From: Ostreococcus lucimarinus
Lineage: Eukaryota
Length of the DNA: 64,000 nt
Assembly (NCBI GenBank): GCA_000092065.1
Contig: CP000589.1
Reading direction: 5' to 3' (one strand)
How positions within the stretch are numbered: the stretch's first letter is position 1; every line of letters starts with the position of its first letter. Shown here in pieces: positions 12,881 to 26,575 of this stretch. Made by a program: the position numbers and the translations under genes. Below the pieces are notes generated by a model. It did not search any database. It saw only the letters and a list, made by a program, of their open reading frames with translations, and was not told the origin of the DNA.

Positions 12881-13564
12881 GTGTCATCACATTCTCATCA
12901 ACCCGTCCACGTCTCTCCAGGCTCCTGGTTCACGGCGTGTGCGATAGACGACGCGCTGCGCGAGCTCGAGGACGAGTCGCTGGGGGGAGGCTCGAGGACG
13001 AGTCGCTGGGGGGAGTCGCTGGGGCGAGTCGCTGGGGGGAGGCTGGGGGGTCGCTGGGCGTGCGTGACGGCGTGCGCGGCGTTTCTGGGAGACTTGGAAC
13101 TCGTGCGGTTGGCGCGCGATTGCGGGCACGAGTGGGACGCGTACACGTGCGCGTTTGCCGCCTATAGTGGAAACTTGGAGTGTTTGAAGTATGCGCACGA
13201 GCACGGGTGTCCTTGGAACAAGTCGACGTGCGCATGTACCGCCTATACTGGACATTTGGGGTGTTTGAAGTACGGGAGGATGGTCCACGGCGTCGACGTC
13301 GAGTCCCACGCCTCGACGTCGGGTCCCACTCGCTCCGCGAGCGCTCGAACGCACGCCCTCCGATCGCGCACTGGACTGCCCTTTTCGCAGTGCAGCGCCA
13401 CGCACGCGCATCCTCTGTCGTCAACGTACGCCTCGAGGTGTACGCCATCCATCGATTCGTCTCCCCACGCGGGTTTGCTCACGTGGATATACGCCCCCGG
13501 TGGGGTCAAGAAACGAGTCTCCCACCCTCGCGCGCGGTCCGCGAACGCGTCGCCGAGACGTTGA
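12881..13564 (+). CDS. ankyrin-repeat protein, short (start and end uncertain)
   Basis: Two to three repeats of the algal/giant-virus-type ankyrin signature GxLECLKYAHEHGCPW...TCAxAAYxG. The N-terminus is encoded by a G-rich tandem repeat. Confidence 0.35.
   Translation: MSSHSHQPVHVSPGSWFTACAIDDALRELEDESLGGGSRTSRWGESLGRVAGGRLGGRWACVTACAAFLGDLELVRLARDCGHEWDAYTCAFAAYSGNLECLKYAHEHGCPWNKSTCACTAYTGHLGCLKYGRMVHGVDVESHASTSGPTRSASARTHALRSRTGLPFSQCSATHAHPLSSTYASRCTPSIDSSPHAGLLTWIYAPGGVKKRVSHPRARSANASPRR
12970..13060. repeat. imperfect tandem repeat (GAGTCGCTGGGGGGAG-like units)
   Basis: gagtcgctggggggaggctcgaggacgagtcgctggggggagtcgctggggcgagtcgctgggggg read directly. Confidence 0.6.
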
Positions 13565-13596
13565 AACTCACGATCGAGCGCGGCGCGGTCGGACAT
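13243..13596 (-). CDS. hypothetical protein (uncertain; overlaps the 3' end of the ankyrin ORF)
   Basis: 117-aa ORF with non-repetitive composition (AYIHVSKPAWGDESMDGVHLEAYVDDRGCACVALHCEKG). No domain recognised. Confidence 0.2.
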   Translation of the reverse strand: MSDRAALDREFQRLGDAFADRARGWETRFLTPPGAYIHVSKPAWGDESMDGVHLEAYVDDRGCACVALHCEKGSPVRDRRACVRALAERVGPDVEAWDSTSTPWTILPYFKHPKCPV

Positions 13597-13935
13597 GCCA
13601 GCGGCGCGCGGGGCAGGCGTCGAGTGAGGTGATTAAATGTCAAACAAATCGTAATAAAATAAAGAAGCGCCGCCGCCTCACGGCGCGCGCGGGGGAAGCG
13701 ACCCGAATGGACGCGCGGGCACGGCGCGCAGCGGTCGGTGGTGCTCGAAGCGCGCGGGCGCGCGCGGGGCGCACGCGAAGCGCACACATCGTCCCAGGGC
13801 GACGCACACGGCACACATGACGTCGGCGGGGGGCTCACGACGCGACGCGGTGTGACCCGACGACACGGGGGGGGCACACGCAGGTTGAGAATCGTGACGA
13901 CATGATGACGACATTGTGCCGGTTCATGTCGTCGT

Positions 13936-14151
13936 TTGGTTGTACCGAGTGAAGGGATTGGTCCGTCCAGAACGCGACGCGGCGCGCGACGGGGATCGCG
14001 TCGACGGACGACGATGGCTCTCGTCGGGACGCGATGCCCCGAATTCCACGTGATCCAGCTCGCGGCGGACGGCACGCGGATGGAACGGGTCAGTCTCACC
14101 GAAGCCGTCCGAGGGGGGCCCGCTGTGATTCACTTTTACAACTCTGGGTGA
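13936..14151 (+). CDS. thioredoxin-fold (TlpA/nucleoredoxin-like) N-terminal fragment that stops at TGA inside a CxxC-like motif; possible selenoprotein or pseudogene
   Basis: CPEFHVIQLAADGTRMERVSLTEAVRGGPAVIHFYNSG-TGA-GGC. This matches the thioredoxin-fold pattern xPxFxLxDxxGxxVSLxxxxGKxVVLNFWASWCGPC, with TGA at the first Cys position. Confidence 0.25.
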   Translation: MVVPSEGIGPSRTRRGARRGSRRRTTMALVGTRCPEFHVIQLAADGTRMERVSLTEAVRGGPAVIHFYNSG

Positions 14152-14297
14152 GGAGGATGCCGCAGGACGACTCTCACGTCGACGTAGTCCCCTAAACGTT
14201 TCAACACGTTGTAATTCATTCGAGGTTTTGGTATTCTTCTATGGCGATAAGTAATACAATCAAATCAATGCGTAACTGCTAACTGCCGCGGCGGCGT

Positions 14298-14816
14298 CTA
14301 TTCCGTCCAGCGGACGTGTTGACGGTGTGGTCTCGAGCCATCCTGAATCAGTTCAATCTTCCGAATGAAGACTTGCTCTGTGTAGCAGCACGAGCACGAG
14401 TGCGTGAGCAAGTGCGTGCATCCGTGTCTCGCGACGAGATCCGCGATGTCCGCGAGCGTGGAGCGCTCGATGCTACTGCACGCCCAGTTCACACGCGCGG
14501 GACACGTGGACTCTGGGTCGTCCAACGTGTCGACGACTTGGAGAATCTTATTTTGGAATTGTCGCACGGCGTAATCGGTTCTATTCCACGTCACTCGGTG
14601 TTCGTCAAAGTAAATTTTAACGACTTTCGCGTCGGACACGTCGAGCGGATCCGATTTCCCACTCAACGCTTCGACGACATCCTTGTAATCCTTGTCCTTG
14701 AAGCGATGCTTCTCGTGCAGATCATCGACGAGGGCGAGCACGCGGTGCCGATCAACGTTCGGGCACACCATGTCCGCGGCTTCGCGGCGGCACGCAATGG
14801 CGCGCGCGTCGCGCAC
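14298..14816 (-). CDS. hypothetical protein (conserved-looking, 172 aa)
   Basis: Complex, non-repetitive ORF. Convergent with the upstream plus-strand ORF across an AT-rich 3' region that contains TGTAA. Confidence 0.35.
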   Translation of the reverse strand: MRDARAIACRREAADMVCPNVDRHRVLALVDDLHEKHRFKDKDYKDVVEALSGKSDPLDVSDAKVVKIYFDEHRVTWNRTDYAVRQFQNKILQVVDTLDDPESTCPARVNWACSSIERSTLADIADLVARHGCTHLLTHSCSCCYTEQVFIRKIELIQDGSRPHRQHVRWTE

Positions 14817-14995
14817 GGTGACCGCGTGGGTCCCGTCGCGTCGACCGGTCGCGTCTTGTATGGGAAAATGGCGGGTCCGCTTTAGTGGTATTTGGATCCG
14901 TTATAGTGCTATCTTGGGTCCGCCCTCAGTGGTCGTCCGGAAAAAAAGGAGACTATGTCGACACATCTGGACGCGACGGCACGACGACGAAGACG

Positions 14996-15808
14996 ATGAC
15001 GCGAGCGGCGACGGAAGCGACGACGGAAGCGACGACGACGCCGGACGACTGCGAGGCGAAGAAAGTCGTCGCGGATGCTGCGGAGGTGGATACGAAAATG
15101 GACGCCGAGGCGAACGCGTACGACGACGATGCGCGCGGTGCGGGTGGGAAGATGAGAAAGGACGGTGCCGCGCGCGCCCGAACGGGCGCTCGGATGACGC
15201 CGTACGCGCGACAGCGGCCGGTGATGACGTCTCGGGTGGGAAATCCCGCGGTAAACGCGGACACAAAAGTGTACGTCGGCAATCTTCCGTACGGGTGCTC
15301 GTGGCAGGACTTGAAGGATCACTTCTCGAACGCCATGGGCGGCGAGAGCGTGCGATTCGCCGATATTCTGACTTCGCGCGATGGACGATCGAAAGGATGC
15401 GGCATCGTGACGTTCAATTCGAGCGAAGACGCGAAGAAAGCTATAGAAACGATGCATGACACGGAGATTGGTGAACGAAAAATCTTCGTTCGGGAGGATC
15501 GTGAAGGAGAAAGAGGAAACGACCTTCGAAATCGGATCGGCCCCTCGGCGACGTCCCCGGACGCGTCAGTCTACGTCGGGAACCTTCCTTGGAGCACTCG
15601 ATGGCAGGAGTTGAAAGATATTTTCCGCAAAGTCGGCAATGTCGCGCACGCTGACGTGACGATGGGCTTTGACGGACGATCCAGAGGTTGGGGCGTGGTG
15701 ACGTTTATGGACCCCCAGTGCGCCCAAGTCGCCATCGAAAGGTTGAACGGTACAATGTTGAACGATCGTGCTCTCATCGTCCGCAGGGATGAACGAGCTC
15801 GAAGCTAA
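14996..15808 (+). CDS. RNA-binding protein with two RRMs (hnRNP M / GBP2-like)
   Basis: KVYVGNLPYGCSWQDLKDHF...GRSKGCGIVTF...IFVRED and SVYVGNLPWSTRWQELKDIF...GRSRGWGVVTF...LIVRRDE (RNP2/RNP1 motifs). Track ORF starts at 14885; ATG at 14996 preferred. Confidence 0.7.
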   Translation: MTRAATEATTEATTTPDDCEAKKVVADAAEVDTKMDAEANAYDDDARGAGGKMRKDGAARARTGARMTPYARQRPVMTSRVGNPAVNADTKVYVGNLPYGCSWQDLKDHFSNAMGGESVRFADILTSRDGRSKGCGIVTFNSSEDAKKAIETMHDTEIGERKIFVREDREGERGNDLRNRIGPSATSPDASVYVGNLPWSTRWQELKDIFRKVGNVAHADVTMGFDGRSRGWGVVTFMDPQCAQVAIERLNGTMLNDRALIVRRDERARS

Positions 15809-15925
15809 AAATGTAAGCATCAATAGTAAAGCCTGTAAGGCTAGTAAGTCTTTAAGAGAAGTGTACCGCACTACCACTCTTACCGCACTCTCTCTCTTGG
15901 CCAGGCTTCACATCACGTCGCGCAA

Positions 15926-18900
15926 TTGTCCCGCGTCGCGCGCGCGTGCGCGCGCGCGATGGAGTCACGAAGCGACAACGACGACATCGATGCCTTTGTC
16001 GATCGTTTCGAGCGCTCGTTGTGTCTAATAAACGACGACATCGACGGCGCGTACGAAGAAGCAACGACGTCAAAGTTGCTTTCGGAGACGCAACGAACGA
16101 TTGAGTCTTGCGGATGGACTCCGCGTTCTATGCGCCTCGACGATGGCGACGGGTGGCGAACCATGACGACCGATGCGTTTGATCGCGCACTCGCGGCTCT
16201 TTTACGCGCGCGCGCGCGGACGAAGAGCGAGTCGACGTTGAGATTGTGGTGGTTATCTGTGCTTGAAATTACGAGCGCGAGAGGAGTGAAGAGTGCGAAT
16301 GATAGTTCTAAGAAAAGTGACGCGTTGGAAGAATTGTGTAGAACGCTCGTGGATGATGTCGCGAGATTAGCGGCTTCGAAACAAGCGCCGGATCGAGAGC
16401 GATGGGGAGAAATTATGGAAGAGCTCGCGCTGACGACCCCTGACGTGGCGACGCGAGAAGAGACGCTTGCGTTGGCGATGCGCGCGTTATACGCGATTGC
16501 GCCTGATGTGGTGCTAAACTGTGCGAGAGAAGCGCTGAAATCTAGACAATCTCAGGCTACTCGCGAAGCGGTGTATTGGTTGCTTTTTGCTTTGAGCGCG
16601 GTGGATCCCGTCGCGGATGACGCATGCACGCAGTTGCTGCGATTAGTGGTGGAGTTTTCTCCAATGAAATGGGCACCTTCGTACAGAAAGAGTGATTTCA
16701 GGCACTCTCTGTCGACAACATTAACGGTGGTGACCACTCGATATCTCTCGCGTGGTAGACCGTCGCCAGGAAGTGTGGACGTGGCCGTTGTGAACAAGGT
16801 ACTCGCTGAAGTCGTGAAGTGGTCGAACGAAAATGAGAAAAAGCACAACACAGCGGGATTACCTCTTCGTGCAATTCTTATAGGATTGGGATTGACACAA
16901 GAAGTAATCTCAGCTGATGCGATACCGATATGGCGACTCCTCCTCGAGAGTAGGGTCAAGGCTGGCATTGAGCAAAAAATGAAGATTTCGAGTTTGCTCG
17001 CGGCGATTCGAGGCGTCGTCATGGGCATCTCAGACCAGCATATCACTGTCATGGAATGCGCAAAGCAGAGTTTGAGTGCGTGTATTTCAGCGATCAAATA
17101 TGGCAGCGGCTCGGAGGATATCGAGCGTCCGCTTGCTCTAGCTAATTGTGTCATGGCAATTCACGGCGTCAATCCGGTGGAGGGCTCAAACGTTCTCAAA
17201 ATGTTCCTTGACGAAACGGACGAGTCTATACGTGCTGCTTCCTGTATCTCGTGCGCCAAAATGACTCAAGAAATGAGCGCCGACGAAGTACGCTCAAGTT
17301 CTTTTCTTTGCGAGTACGTTGACGGAGTGTTGCCAAAATACCTGACCGGCTTGTCGGCTTCGGCTTCAGCTGCGACGATAGCGGGGGCACTGCAGTGCTC
17401 GAAGTTCACCAGCCCAAAATATATTGCGCCGTCATCGGTGGAATTCGCGTGCTCTTGGGTTAAAAGTGACTCTGTCGCGGTTCGTAATGCCGTAGAAGAA
17501 TATTTGCTGCACGTCATAAGGTCCAATGTCAGCCTGCGCAACGCAACGCTTCAGGCGGTTGCGTCGGCTGTGTTGAACATGAGAGACTTTGCGCCCGCTG
17601 CTCGGTTATCGGCGATCAACGTTCTCGTGGGTGTTTGCAAAATTTGGCAAGATTGTTTACAAAACGGCGCAAATAGTAAATGTGAGTGTAGCGACGAGCG
17701 CGCAGAGGCGGCAGCTCTTCTACTGGTTTGCGATGCAGACTTTTCAGTGCGCACTGGCGCTGTTCAAGCACTGCGAGAAATTTCCAACCTGCGCGAACGC
17801 GTAGACTCGATGAATGGAGACAATGCCACGTCGCGTGCGGCCCTCTATCCAGTACTACAAAAGTATTTAAACATCACTGATATTCCGACTCTCATCAGGG
17901 AAATCAGCCGAACGACAGCGCTTGAGTGTGCCGCCGTCCATACGACAACGCACGCGCAAGCGTATCAACGAATTCAAGCGATGATGGTCGCCGAGGGAGA
18001 CGGCAAACTCTTGGTCGTCCCAGTCAAGCCGTCCGAGTATAGGTACAACTTATGGCAAAACTATATGCTGTTCGTTTGTTCCACCGATGGCGCGGCTGGC
18101 GGCGGCGGCGGGCTTGATGCACGACAAGTCGTCACGATCGGCCAACGGGGTTCTCTTGCGGGATTGTTGCAAACTGTGATTCCGCGATTGGGTCAATCCA
18201 ATGTTGAAGTCGACGCTATCATGCGACTTTTCCAGCTCGTGCCTGCACAATCAAAAGCGACAATTTTGAGTGCACTGCTTCCGTTACAAAGCGGATTGAT
18301 GAGATACACGCTCATGAGGCGAAAGCGTCGAGAAGACTTGAACATGGTCATCCGCTTCGGGGAACTGTACCAAGACTACGCGTTGCATGGTGTCTTCGCG
18401 TCCACCGCTGATGCGACAAAGAATTTAAATGCAGCTATCGATTTCGTGTTGATGGTTTGTTCCTACTTGAAAACGAATGCAAAAGCAGAGTGTTCGCCTA
18501 CTGAGATAATTCAGCTCAGGTTTTCGGCAGCCGCAATTATCGGTGCAGTGCTCACAGATGCGGAGAAGGTGCGGGCACTACCCGTGGTGACGCATGCTGA
18601 ATTATGGGACAACTTTTACGCGTGGCAAGAGTCGCCAAATCCGAAGGCATTGGATGAGAGTGGCGATTCAACTTCACGTATGCATGTGCAAACGCTCATC
18701 GATGACCTCGCACGCGATCACACGCGAAAACCCACCGAGAGAGACGTTGGTTTTGCATCAAGGGAAGCGCTGGCGGCGCTGAGTCTCAGCGAGCACTTTA
18801 CGCGAGAATCGGCGAAGAAGATTTTCGATTGGGTGAACCGTCTCGCTGAGCTTGGTGACAGTAAGAGTCTAGAACTCTCCAAAAGAGTAGTCGTTGAAAT

Positions 18901-21890: not shown

Positions 21891-23132
21891 ATGTCGCGCG
21901 ACGACGGCGCGAAAGACAAACGCCCGATCGTCGTCATCAAGGTCGGCACGAGCTCGCTGCTGAAGACGAACGACGGGTGCGTGCACCTGTCCCAGCTCTG
22001 CGCGCTGTGCGAGACGGTGGCCAACCTCAAGCGTCACGGATACCACGTCGTGCTCGTGAGCTCGGGCGCGGTGGGGGCGGGCATGGTGAAAATGGGGATA
22101 AAACCCTCGGCGACGAAGCCGTCGCTGGCGCGTAAACAAGCGCTGGCGGCGATCGGGCAACCGTACTTGATGAGGTATTACACCGACGTGTTTTCGTCTC
22201 TCGGCGCGAGCTGCGCGCAGGTGTTGCTGACGCTGGAGAATCTGTCCAATCGCACGCAATACCAAAAGGCGAAACAGACGTTTGAGCAGCTATTTGAACT
22301 CGGGGCGATTCCGGTGGTGAACGAAAACGATACGGTGGCGGTGGAGGAGTTGAGGTTCGGGGACAACGATACGTTGAGCGCGCAGGTGGCGGCGCTCGTC
22401 GAGGCGCAGTATTTATTCTTATTGACGGATGTCGACGGATTGTACACGTCGAATCCAGCGAGCGATCCCGCGGCGAAGAAGATCGAAACGGTGGAAGATA
22501 TAAACGCCTTAGACGTAGACGTGAACTCGGGCGCAGGCTCAAACGTCGGTACCGGCGGGATGGTGACCAAGCTCACAGCGGCGCGCATCGCGAGCGCGGC
22601 GGGGTGTCAGACAGTCATCTGTCTTGCATCCGTGCAAGGCACAGCCATCATGGACGTGTTGGCTGGTAAATCGGGGATAGGTACCCGATTTTTAGCGGCC
22701 AAGAAAAGCGCGAGAGGGAAGAAGCGTTGGTTATTATCGGTGCCCATCAAGGGCGAGGTGCGAGTCGACGAAGACGGCGCCAAGGCTGTGCTAAACGGCA
22801 TGGCGCTCATGGTTTCGAAATGCGTAGCCGTGGAGGGCACGTTTGGCTTGCAAGAAAGTGTGCGCATTTTAGACGAAAACGGCGCCGAGCTCGGGCGTGG
22901 TCTCTCCAATTACATCATCGGCGCAATGCGCGATTTTCTCCAACGCGGCCCGGCGACGAGCGACGACGAATGGGAAGACGATCTCGACGGGCCGCCCGAG
23001 TTGATTCACTCCAACAACGTGTGCATCACCAACGCCGAGACGCTCGCCAAGTCTTTCGTTCTACGAAATATAGGCACGTATGGGTCGATGATGATGGACG
23101 GAGGCGCCTCGAGCGGCGACGACGAACGATGA
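21891..23132 (+). CDS. proB: glutamate 5-kinase with C-terminal PUA domain (stand-alone, bacterial/yeast type)
   Basis: RPIVVIKVGTSSL, VVLVSSGAVGAG, NENDTVAVEELRFGDNDTLSAQVA, TDVDGLYTSNP, GTGGMVTKL. PUA-like GEVRVDEDGAKAVLNGMALMVS. The ORF's first 125 codons are low-complexity; ATG at 21891 (MSRDDGAKDKRPIVVIK) preferred. Confidence 0.8.
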   Translation: MSRDDGAKDKRPIVVIKVGTSSLLKTNDGCVHLSQLCALCETVANLKRHGYHVVLVSSGAVGAGMVKMGIKPSATKPSLARKQALAAIGQPYLMRYYTDVFSSLGASCAQVLLTLENLSNRTQYQKAKQTFEQLFELGAIPVVNENDTVAVEELRFGDNDTLSAQVAALVEAQYLFLLTDVDGLYTSNPASDPAAKKIETVEDINALDVDVNSGAGSNVGTGGMVTKLTAARIASAAGCQTVICLASVQGTAIMDVLAGKSGIGTRFLAAKKSARGKKRWLLSVPIKGEVRVDEDGAKAVLNGMALMVSKCVAVEGTFGLQESVRILDENGAELGRGLSNYIIGAMRDFLQRGPATSDDEWEDDLDGPPELIHSNNVCITNAETLAKSFVLRNIGTYGSMMMDGGASSGDDER

Positions 23133-23545
23133 GAGGAATAATATTTCAAACGAGTAGACACACAAAGCGAGCGAGATGTAGTACAAACAAACCAGCAGTC
23201 CTTGGAAGCGCGCGCGATGTGGCTGCCGCAAAAAAATCGCGGTCGCAAACGCGAAGGTGATGGGCTTAAAAAAATTGTTGTATATCGAACAGAAGTTTCG
23301 ATCTTCTGACCTTTGGGTTATGGGCCCAACGCGCTTCCACTGCGCCAGTTCGATTTCTTCGTCGCCGTATTGCGGGCTACAATATATCCTCGTACAGCCT
23401 AAATTTCAAACAGTACCCACCCCGTCGCCTTCATCGCGTAAAGTTACGGGTTTCTTCCCGAAGTCAACGGCGGGCGACGGACGCGCGTCGTCGTCCGCAC
23501 TCGCCCCCCCGACGTCGCTCGGATCGCGACCGCGCGCGCGCGCCG

Positions 23546-24591: not shown

Positions 24592-24721
24592 CGGAATGTT
24601 TGTTTGTATTATACGCGGTAGAGTCATAGAATCACGGCGTCTCGGGACCGATCGAGGACCGATCGTTCGCCTCGCCGTCGTCGCGCGCGCCGCGTCTCGT
24701 CGCGTCACACCCCGGCGGTTC

Positions 24722-25447
24722 ATGCTCGGTGGTGCCCGCGCGTTCGCCCGCTCTCCCGCTCGCGTCGTCGCTCTCACCGCGTCCATCGCCGCGTGCGCCA
24801 CCGTCACCGCGCCTCGCGGTTCGATGACGGCCGCGCGCGCGACGTATTCGGACAAACACACGCGCGTGAGCGCGTCGTTCGGTGACGTCAAGGACATTCG
24901 TTTGAGGCCGCTGCCGAAGCGCGACGACGAAGAATCGTTCGCGGCGTCGGGTTTGTGGAGAGAAAAACCGTGCGTCATCGTGGTGATGCGCAGGCCGGGA
25001 TGAGTGCTGTGCCGTGGGGAAGCCGTGAAGGTGTACGAGAGGAAGCGCGAGTTCGACGCGCTCGGGTGCACGCTGGCGTGCGTCCTCAAGGAAGGCTTAC
25101 CCGCGGAGGTGGAGGAGTTTAAGCGAGACTTTTGGCCGGAACACTTATACTTGGACGAAGATAAGGCGTTCTTTAAGGCTGTGGGGGGTGGGAAACTGAA
25201 GAAAGGGTCGCTGAGTGCGTTTTTGAATCCGTTTTCTCGCATTTGGAAACACGCGGGCGACGCGAAGAAAGCCGGCGTCAAGGAACACAATCTGAACGGC
25301 GAAGGGCTGATCATGGGTGGGATGTTCGTGATGAAGCCCGGTTCACAAGGCGTGCAGTATCAGTTTCAAGAGCGAAATTTCGGCGATCACGCGCCCATCG
25401 AAGACGTGTTGGCGGCGGCCAAGGCGGCGTCTGAGGCGTCGAAGTAA
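24722..25447 (+). CDS. SELU: selenoprotein U (PRXL2/FAM213 family) with in-frame UGA (Sec) at 25001..25003
   Basis: One reading frame reads ...LWREKPCVIVVMRRPG-TGA-VLCRGEAVKVYE...GEGLIMGGMFVMKPGSQGVQYQFQERNFGDHAPIEDVLAAAK. Collinear with PRXL2A (AKELWEKNGAVIMAVRRPGCFLCREEA...GEGFILGGVFVVGSGKQGILLEHREKEFGD), with TGA at the first Cys of CxxC. The track splits it into 24596..25003 and 25004..25447. Start at 24722 (MLGG) or 24824, because 24596 is only 4 nt after the cyclophilin stop. Confidence 0.7.
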
Positions 25448-25518
25448 CGTCGCAACGACGTCACGATTCAACGAGCAAGTGCGCCACCGATTGCGATCGC
25501 GTTTCATCAGGCGTGTGT

Positions 25519-25565
25519 ACGTGACGTGATAAACGTAAAGTCTTTGTGTTTCATCGCAAGGATCG
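25519..25565 (+). promoter_or_regulatory. candidate SECIS element in the SelU 3' UTR
   Basis: The core is GUGA, where AUGA is canonical. Potential helix II GUGAUAAAC / GUUU(c)AUCGC. Unpaired AAA twelve nt downstream, in a 13-nt apical loop. A 3' GA (gGAu) placed to form the tandem G.A/A.G quartet. Lies 70 to 120 nt after the stop and before a TGTAA at 25634. Hand-folded only. Confidence 0.3.
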
Positions 25566-25657
25566 TTTCTTCACCGATTTTCATCGCCGCGCGATCGATT
25601 CGGACGTCGCTTCTCTTTTGTCTCATCATCAATTTGTAAATCTGTGCGTTCATGCAA

Positions 25658-26575
25658 TCACTTGTCTTTTGCCTTCTCCTTGTCATCCGACGACGCGGCT
25701 TTTTGTGTCGTCTGCACGCGCTCTTCCTCCGCCTTTTCGTCCGCTTCCGAAGGCTTGTACACGATGACGGGCTTTTTGCATCGATGCAAACAATAGTTGC
25801 ACACGCTCCCGATGAAAAATTCACGAATGCGGCCTTTTGACGATGAAGCGAGAACGACGGCGACGGCGTCGTCGATGAGCGTGGACTTTTCCACCATGAT
25901 CTCTCCCACGGATGACACATTCGTGTCGTACGGGACGATGTCGATTTTGTACGCGATCGAGGCTTCGTCGAGCAGTGGGACGACGTGTTCGTCCATCCAT
26001 CTGAGCGCTTCGTTTCGCCACGCCGTTTCCTGCGCATCAAATACAACAGTACGTCAATCCTCGGTTCTCATCTCGTCCGATCGACGTAGATGCGAAACAA
26101 CCTGCTCTCGCGCGTGGAACACTTCTCGGCGAAGCATCGGCGATGACTGATAGAGGTATCGCATTGCGGCTCTGCGGACGAACGAACGAACGAAAAAACG
26201 ATGATTAATCACTCGCCTGTTCTTCATCTGGCACGGTGACTGGGTAGAAATCGCCCATCAACGCGCTCACGCTGTCCGAAGCCGGAAAAGTTCTGCGCCA
26301 CACGTCAACGAAACGAACGACGCGAGCGCGAGCGCGCGCGCGACGCCTCGAAACGAAACGCACCCCGGAATCACGTGCACCACCCGGCACTCGTCTCGTT
26401 CGCTCGTCGCGAGATTTTCGATGAACCATCGAACCATTGGAACCGTGGTCTTCGCGCAGTCGACGCCCAAGATCCAAATCTTCCGCGCGCGTCCCGCTCG
26501 ACACGCGCACGCCGCGCCGCACGAGCAATTTTCATCGCAGTCCCCTCCGCACGCGCACGTCGCGCAGTCGCACAT
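25658..26575 (-). CDS. universal stress protein (UspA family), two-exon model: exon 1 26575..26375, intron 26374..26030 (GTGATT...TTGAC...GCGCAG), exon 2 26029..25658
   Basis: Exon 1 gives the USP N-terminus KIWILGVDCAKTTVPMVRWFIENLATSERDECRVVH (beta1 / alpha1 / beta2, like plant [33 protein letters not shown]). Exon 2 gives ETAWRNEALRWMDEHVVPLLDEASIAYKIDIV...GRIREFFIGSVCNYCLHRCKKPVIVYK (USP C-terminal GSVS.YC.HH..CPVLVV). Both splice sites are phase 0. Neither ORF alone is a complete USP fold. The Cys-rich first 30 aa may not be real. Confidence 0.5.

Follow-up and report, generated by a model that had tools for sequence, protein, structure and literature searches.

A 45-codon thioredoxin-like reading frame in Ostreococcus lucimarinus is probably the stub of a selenoprotein gene shortened by an internal deletion

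The DNA analysed is a 64,000-nt stretch from Ostreococcus lucimarinus (contig CP000589.1 of assembly GCA_000092065.1), hereafter the window. The frame studied here is situated in the gene order DUF3730 - SNF2 - small ORFs - gene - RRM - MOR2/PAG1 - YidD - glutamate 5-kinase. An ATG at 14014 opens a frame of 45 codons, MALVGTRCPEFHVIQLAADGTRMERVSLTEAVRGGPAVIHFYNSG, starting with MALVG and ending with VIHFYNSG; the program-listed ORF (13936..14151) begins at an upstream TTG. The TGA that ends the frame is followed by GGA GGA TGC CGC AGG ACG ACT CTC ACG TCG ACG and the read-through frame is closed by a TAG at 14185-14187, 11 codons past the TGA. The original prediction had described the ORF, its TGA, the GGA GGA TGC, the nearby TAG and a GTGAGG overlapping the TGA (14148-14153), and all of these are present in the sequence as described, with the codons of the proposed U-G-G-C motif at 14149-14160 (Table 1). 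A Pfam search with the 57-aa read-through peptide alone gave zero matches because only the lead-in strands remain, and the thioredoxin resemblance is therefore not demonstrable from the window by itself. Downstream, the end of a convergent ORF leaves no room for the approximately 100 missing residues of a thioredoxin fold.

Table 1. Positions of the features at the stub locus within the window
Feature	Position	Strand	Basis
Codons 1-45 of the selenoprotein gene, kept (MALVGTRCPEFHV...VIHFYNSG)	14014..14148	+	No difference from the first codons of the intact 324-codon ORF (L002 and similar contigs)
Codons 1-45 as N-terminal beta-strand lead-in of the thioredoxin fold	14014..14148	+	Inside the AhpC-TSA/Redoxin Pfam match, residues 4-82
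Start homologous to Chloropicon MAELTGKRCPAFKV and L015 MSLTGKPMPEFYV	14014..14148	+	Alignment
TGA, ancestral Sec codon 46, first position of U-G-G-C	14149..14151	+	Same alignment column in L002, L013/L014, L015 and L032
GGA GGA TGC CGC, codons 47-50 (G-G-C-R), last coding bases kept	14152..14163	+	Up to the left breakpoint
Deletion junction, AG in place of 974 bp (L002:1794-2767)	14164..14165	.	Comparison with long alleles
Retained distal 3' region of the former gene, intergenic today, with the out-of-frame TAG	14166..14297	+	Collinear with L002:2768 onwards, 99.9% identity
Convergent 172-aa ORF	14298..14816	-	Its stop is the end of the distal 3' region, 147 nt downstream of the stub TGA

When the 45-aa peptide and the 172-aa ORF beside it were looked up by exact match, environmental contigs 98-99.9% identical to the window were retrieved, and these occur in two forms, a short form equal to the window and a long form in which ...GGAGGATGCCGC and GACGACTCTCACG... 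are separated by 974 additional bases. Identity with the long alleles stops after ...GATGCCGC (window 14163, corresponding to 1793 in the long-allele contig L002), and the lesion can equivalently be described as a 972-bp deletion together with one A>G change. The long form reads through the TGA (TGA GGA GGA TGC CGC CCG GTC...) as a 324-codon ORF with a TGA stop and no intron, whereas the in-frame continuation past the stub TGA consists of four homologous codons, then the junction and the TAG. With the 974 bp the window copy has lost a SECIS-like hairpin as well as codons 51-324 and their stop. The 15 long-allele contigs represent 12 haplotypes, each with exactly one internal TGA (codon 46) and a terminal stop, and in six of the contigs (L018, L026, L028-L031) the long allele is flanked by the same genes as the stub in the window, which identifies the window form as an allele of the same locus. 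Intact alleles thus coexist with the deletion allele in natural populations of this Mamiellophyceae alga.

The intact gene encodes 323 residues comprising an AhpC/TSA-Redoxin (TlpA-like) fold, a low-complexity linker and a C-terminal hemerythrin domain. With Cys in place of Sec, the full-length protein scores 31.1 bits against Pfam AhpC-TSA (cut-off 26) and 27.3 bits against Redoxin (cut-off 26.6), both over residues 4-86. The thioredoxin lead-in proposed for the window peptide is borne out by these scores, the peptide being identical to the N-terminus of this full-length conspecific gene. When aligned with PDB thioredoxins, ihFYnsgCggCRpvA falls on vdFWaaWCGPCRmmA with Sec46 on the first Cys of WCGPC, giving Sec46-Gly-Gly-Cys49 as the redox motif, with U-G-G-C opposite C-G-P-C. 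The family homologues also share an invariant cysteine in the sequence QLGCQG, which would occupy the usual cis-Pro loop position of thioredoxin folds.

The C-terminal third of the protein, which is deleted from the window, corresponds to a four-helix hemerythrin bundle with seven di-iron ligand positions (H...HxxxE...HxxxH...HxxxxD), and among 51 homologues the ligand residues are invariant or nearly so. A family profile matched PDB myohemerythrin with E = 8.8e-6. The AlphaFold model of the intact protein has a mean pLDDT of 83, exceeding 90 in the C-terminal domain, and compares with hemerythrin and myohemerythrin at TM 0.78-0.79. Pfam hemerythrin scores were below the gathering threshold in every member tested. 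The conserved ligand positions suggest that the domain of the intact protein may bind a di-iron centre.

The motif V-HFY-x-G-U-GGCR is invariant over L002, Chloropicon (L013/L014) and L015 and L032, which derive from two other metagenomic organisms. The Chloropicon primus genome has VVHFYNAG-TGA-GGCRPAAMQM at this place, as does a spliced mRNA contig whose alignment to the genome resolves into four exons. L015 has VLHFYNAG-TGA-GGCRPVAQQ followed by an intron and then MQAWRR, and L032 has, at the DNA level, VIHFYNGG-TGA-GGCRPCAAQM. The predicted protein from L032 (P0243, L032:337-1296) is stored with W at the Sec position, its source having translated TGA as Trp; the same contig has another TGA in frame close to the C-terminus (CKTSK-TGA-PPAAA) that may be a further Sec codon or an artefact. 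The original prediction had placed the TGA at the first Cys of a UxxC motif, and this TGA lines up with WCGPC at its first Cys and with a TGA in four homologues, which puts the motif far beyond chance. An exhaustive profile search yielded 543 representative homologues, 81 of them below 1e-30, where a word search yields few. Nearly all predicted homologues (P0183-P0331) begin at a Met nine residues past the TGA, which is the signature of Sec genes shortened by gene callers. The intact gene is accepted as a selenoprotein gene, in which Sec is presumably inserted in vivo.

The SECIS-like hairpin of the long form (L002:2655-2710) lies inside the deleted segment, begins 37 nt past the stop codon and has the arrangement ACATGAC-helix-AAAA-mini-stem-helix-TGAT, with an extra apical mini-stem. 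Similar SECIS-like hairpins were found in the 3'UTRs of the L015 (L015:1935-2010) and Chloropicon (L014:1150-1225) homologues, and the hairpins of L002 (2645-2720), L015 and L014 all show the architecture ATGA...AA...GA. The L002 hairpin is no more stable than shuffled sequence (z = -0.65) and is called a SECIS by motif and fold only. According to Lobanov et al. (2007, PMC2375036), most SECIS elements of Ostreococcus have a G where an A would otherwise precede the UGA core. A covariance search with Rfam release 15 (E up to 10) found no SECIS in 13000-16000, in the whole window or in L002; as the SECIS-like hairpin of L002 is among those it does not score, its SECIS negatives are uninformative for these algae. 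A pattern scan of window 14152-14420 with relaxed rules likewise found no SECIS-like pattern, so that the search for a SECIS downstream of the stub, proposed together with the original prediction, has come out negative within the window. The scanner (ATGA/NTGA...AA...GA) finds the L002 and L015 elements and misses the Chloropicon hairpin, which was seen by folding, as well as any SECIS of the SelU-like gene described below, and its sensitivity is thus limited.

The SelU-like (AhpC-TSA_2) gene, mentioned in the original prediction as a sign that the genome uses Sec, is present in the window at 24596-25447 (+) and has an in-frame TGA at 25001-25003 in the motif RRPG-U-xxCR. Here the ORF 24596..25003 ends with CVIVVMRRPG and the TGA, and the ORF 25004..25447 then starts from MLCRGEA. 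ATGA and NTGA pattern scans of 25440-25720, of limited sensitivity, gave no match for a SelU SECIS, and neither a tRNA-Sec nor an SBP2 gene is found in the 64-kb window. As for a second UxxC selenoprotein in this genome, the idea holds for the ancestral gene and the intact alleles and fails for the window, where the stub is not a working gene.

The junction GCCGC-AG-GACGACTC is found in the window and in all nine short-allele locus entries, which correspond to eight distinct contigs (L005 and L009 being the same contig). Identical short junctions in L001, L003-L006, L010 and L011 come from different samples, and a junction common to at least seven independent metagenome contigs indicates that the deletion allele is real and segregates and did not arise during assembly. 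The surrounding block is repeated in two contexts of the metagenome assemblies and is able to confuse assemblers, which could make the short form an assembly or sequencing artefact of a genome that in truth has the full gene at this site. This is very unlikely, however, since GCCGC-AG-GACGAC recurs in at least seven independent contigs from differing projects and assemblers, including the 44-kb contig L001 that is collinear with the window, and since a filler of 2 nt is typical of a biological deletion and not of repeat collapse. Direct repeats or microhomology were sought at both breakpoints without any being found, and because the breakpoints are not flanked by such sequences the deletion may have arisen by end-joining.

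The deleted segment (L002:1794-2767) has a G+C content of 0.52, compared with about 0.60 for the whole window, as might be expected if the short form were ancestral and the 974 bp elsewhere were inserted DNA, for example a mobile element. However, the segment prolongs the ORF without a change of frame and codes for conserved sequence, namely the rest of the thioredoxin fold and the hemerythrin domain; it has homologues in Chloropicon and in hundreds of other sequences, and is without terminal repeats or target duplication, which makes an insertion scarcely credible.

Another alternative, put forward in the original prediction, is that the stub is a first exon, GTGAGG over the TGA being a splice donor and downstream exons supplying the rest of the fold. 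The GTGAGG is indeed present and homologues of other species have introns elsewhere in the gene, but the intact conspecific alleles read through the TGA and are intronless there, the spliced Chloropicon mRNA retains the TGA, and GTGAGG is not conserved in the homologues, L015 having GGATGAGG at the corresponding bases, which is not a donor. When the 974-bp segment (blastn) and the 269-aa downstream part of the protein (tblastn) were used as queries, no match was found in the 64-kb window, hence no downstream exon or copy of the lost segment, and the convergent 172-aa ORF ends shortly downstream of the stub. Completion of the domain by splicing is for these reasons highly improbable and that part of the original prediction is abandoned.

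The stub might also give a functional small product, either the 45-aa peptide or, by read-through, a 57-aa Sec micro-protein, as neither the start codon nor the promoter side is damaged and the 45 codons are unchanged across all short-allele contigs retrieved. Unchanged codons are, however, what is expected of a recent deletion, and they partly reflect retrieval bias. The 11 codons past the TGA come from what used to be 3'UTR and are read outside that context, one short-allele contig (L010) already has a new stop past the TGA, no SECIS-like element is found downstream even with relaxed rules, and a fragment without helix alpha-1 onwards has no thioredoxin fold. A function of this kind is accordingly given very little credence.

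Window 14014-14165 is best regarded as the remaining stub of a selenoprotein gene that one internal deletion has inactivated, i.e. a pseudogene (probability roughly 0.9), and of the possibilities raised in the original prediction it is the decayed pseudogene that agrees with the data, 974 bp past codon 50 being replaced by AG. In the intact gene UGA46 would be recoded as Sec by the SECIS-like hairpin 3' of the stop. One deletion event would then have replaced the 974 bp directly past codon 50 by AG, and as the SECIS is gone the TGA of the stub should act as a plain stop. If the stub is transcribed, the ribosome would be expected to halt at the UGA and release at most a 45-residue fragment (57 residues with read-through), which is predicted to be unable to form the thioredoxin fold, with loss of function as the likely outcome.

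The long alleles differ at 16 nonsynonymous and 8 synonymous segregating sites, and none of the 16 nonsynonymous polymorphisms falls at an invariant residue. With pN/pS about 0.59, the within-species polymorphism of the intact gene is weakly constrained. All short-allele contigs retrieved carry Gly35, and Ala35 is found in 14 of the 15 long alleles, L002 alone pairing the long form with Gly35. This distribution is subject to sampling bias, L001-L006 having been retrieved with the exact 45-aa (Gly35) peptide; L010 and L011 were reached via the neighbouring gene. That the junction is identical in all short-allele contigs and linked to Gly35 indicates that the deletion took place once, on one haplotype.

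When comparing the surroundings of the locus, a block of approximately 2.6 kb, from about 13.06-13.27 kb (13056/13273) to 15.82 kb (15823) and containing a 117-aa ORF, the stub, the 172-aa ORF and the RRM gene, proved to be absent from the syntenic site (265-aa gene / MOR2/PAG1) in sister species with 80-83% identity in glutamate 5-kinase. The block also occurs in a second context, beside ribosomal L14, Rce1-like and pyruvate kinase genes (L027, L016, L017, L019-L021). Its absence from these sister species and presence in a second context indicate that the block has recently moved or been duplicated. Contigs assembled from short-read metagenomes may be chimeric across the repeat, making allele-to-context assignments insecure, and one contig (L004) has the short allele with a right flank like that of the second context. 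The source genome might hold another, intact copy elsewhere, and the organism as a whole therefore need not lack the protein.

A thioredoxin-like selenoprotein family of algae named 'TlpA', in which about 80% are Sec forms and which has a hemerythrin metal-binding domain, has been described (Jiang et al. 2020, BMC Genomics 21:699, PMC7539508), and a 'thioredoxin-fold / thioredoxin-like' selenoprotein was reported earlier from Ostreococcus and Thalassiosira (Lobanov et al. 2007, PMC2375036). Judged by comparison of descriptions alone, the intact gene probably belongs to the 'TlpA' family of Jiang et al., which in turn is probably the thioredoxin-fold selenoprotein of Lobanov et al. The intact allele and the 'TlpA' family share a thioredoxin-like fold, with Sec replacing the first Cys in a motif of the CxxC type, and a hemerythrin domain at the C-terminus; the homologues are mostly Sec forms, and both occur in marine algae. 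The window copy, in contrast, keeps 50 of the 324 codons, is without SECIS and is not a working member of the family.

The lead-in of the intact gene is shared with bacterial TlpA/ResA/DsbE and thioredoxin (PF00578, PF08534), in which it has the form xPxF...V.L....kpvvl.FWa.WCxxCR, and its U-G-G-C-R aligns with C-G-P-C-R of these CxxC oxidoreductases. Unlike them, the intact protein has Sec for the first Cys and the QLGCQG Cys at the putative cis-Pro position; it is a eukaryotic protein fused to a hemerythrin domain, and no signal peptide is evident in it. With hemerythrin, myohemerythrin and DcrH-type domains (PF01814) it shares the four-helix bundle and all di-iron ligand positions; the differences are its sub-threshold Pfam scores and its fusion to a Sec thioredoxin fold, and binding of iron or O2 by it is putative. 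No functional study of the Sec-thioredoxin-hemerythrin family was found in the literature searched.

Massive independent losses of selenoproteins have been reported in several lineages (Lobanov et al. 2007, PMC2375036). As in such losses between species, a Sec gene has here been lost and not converted from Sec to Cys, whereas in this case the loss is seen inside a single species, where the 974-bp deletion allele segregates and intact alleles are still common. As a genomic object the window frame is ordinary, being what a deletion has left of a selenoprotein gene of known kind, and its interest is modest: the loss is caught as a within-species polymorphism, a small concrete example of selenoprotein loss within species, and the family is large and uncharacterised. 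The intact and deleted alleles together constitute a natural loss-of-function comparison for the Sec-thioredoxin-hemerythrin protein. It may be speculated that a selenoprotein loss is in progress and that the frequency of the presence/absence alleles tracks selenium or iron availability; this is rather doubtful, but if true the locus would mark ecotypes and would serve as a knockout of natural origin for this family.

For annotation, the 45-codon ORF should be recorded as a selenoprotein pseudogene or deletion allele and not as a gene, and its TGA should not count toward the selenoproteome of the genome from the window locus. The family as a whole (543 representative clusters) is systematically mis-annotated, the public proteins being without the redox motif because gene callers start at the Met past the Sec codon.

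Several indel polymorphisms were also observed among the conspecific contigs. L026, L004, L001 and L018 have extra diverged tandem copies of window 13133-13274, and a 63-nt segment (window 14876-14938) is missing in L002, L016, L017, L020 and L027. At 15823 there are insertions with an 8-nt overlap (15816-15823), of about 131 nt in L026 and about 860 nt in L016, and L026 lacks a block of about 434 nt (22780-23213) from the 3' end of glutamate 5-kinase. Directly downstream of glutamate 5-kinase a tRNA gene is located at 23283-23354 (-), with an Rfam score of 57.5 bits and the anticodon CAU (Met or Ile2 type). Other relatives lie at 80-90%, and the closest named homologue is Bathycoccus prasinos, with 70% for Tab2 and 52% for glutamate 5-kinase.
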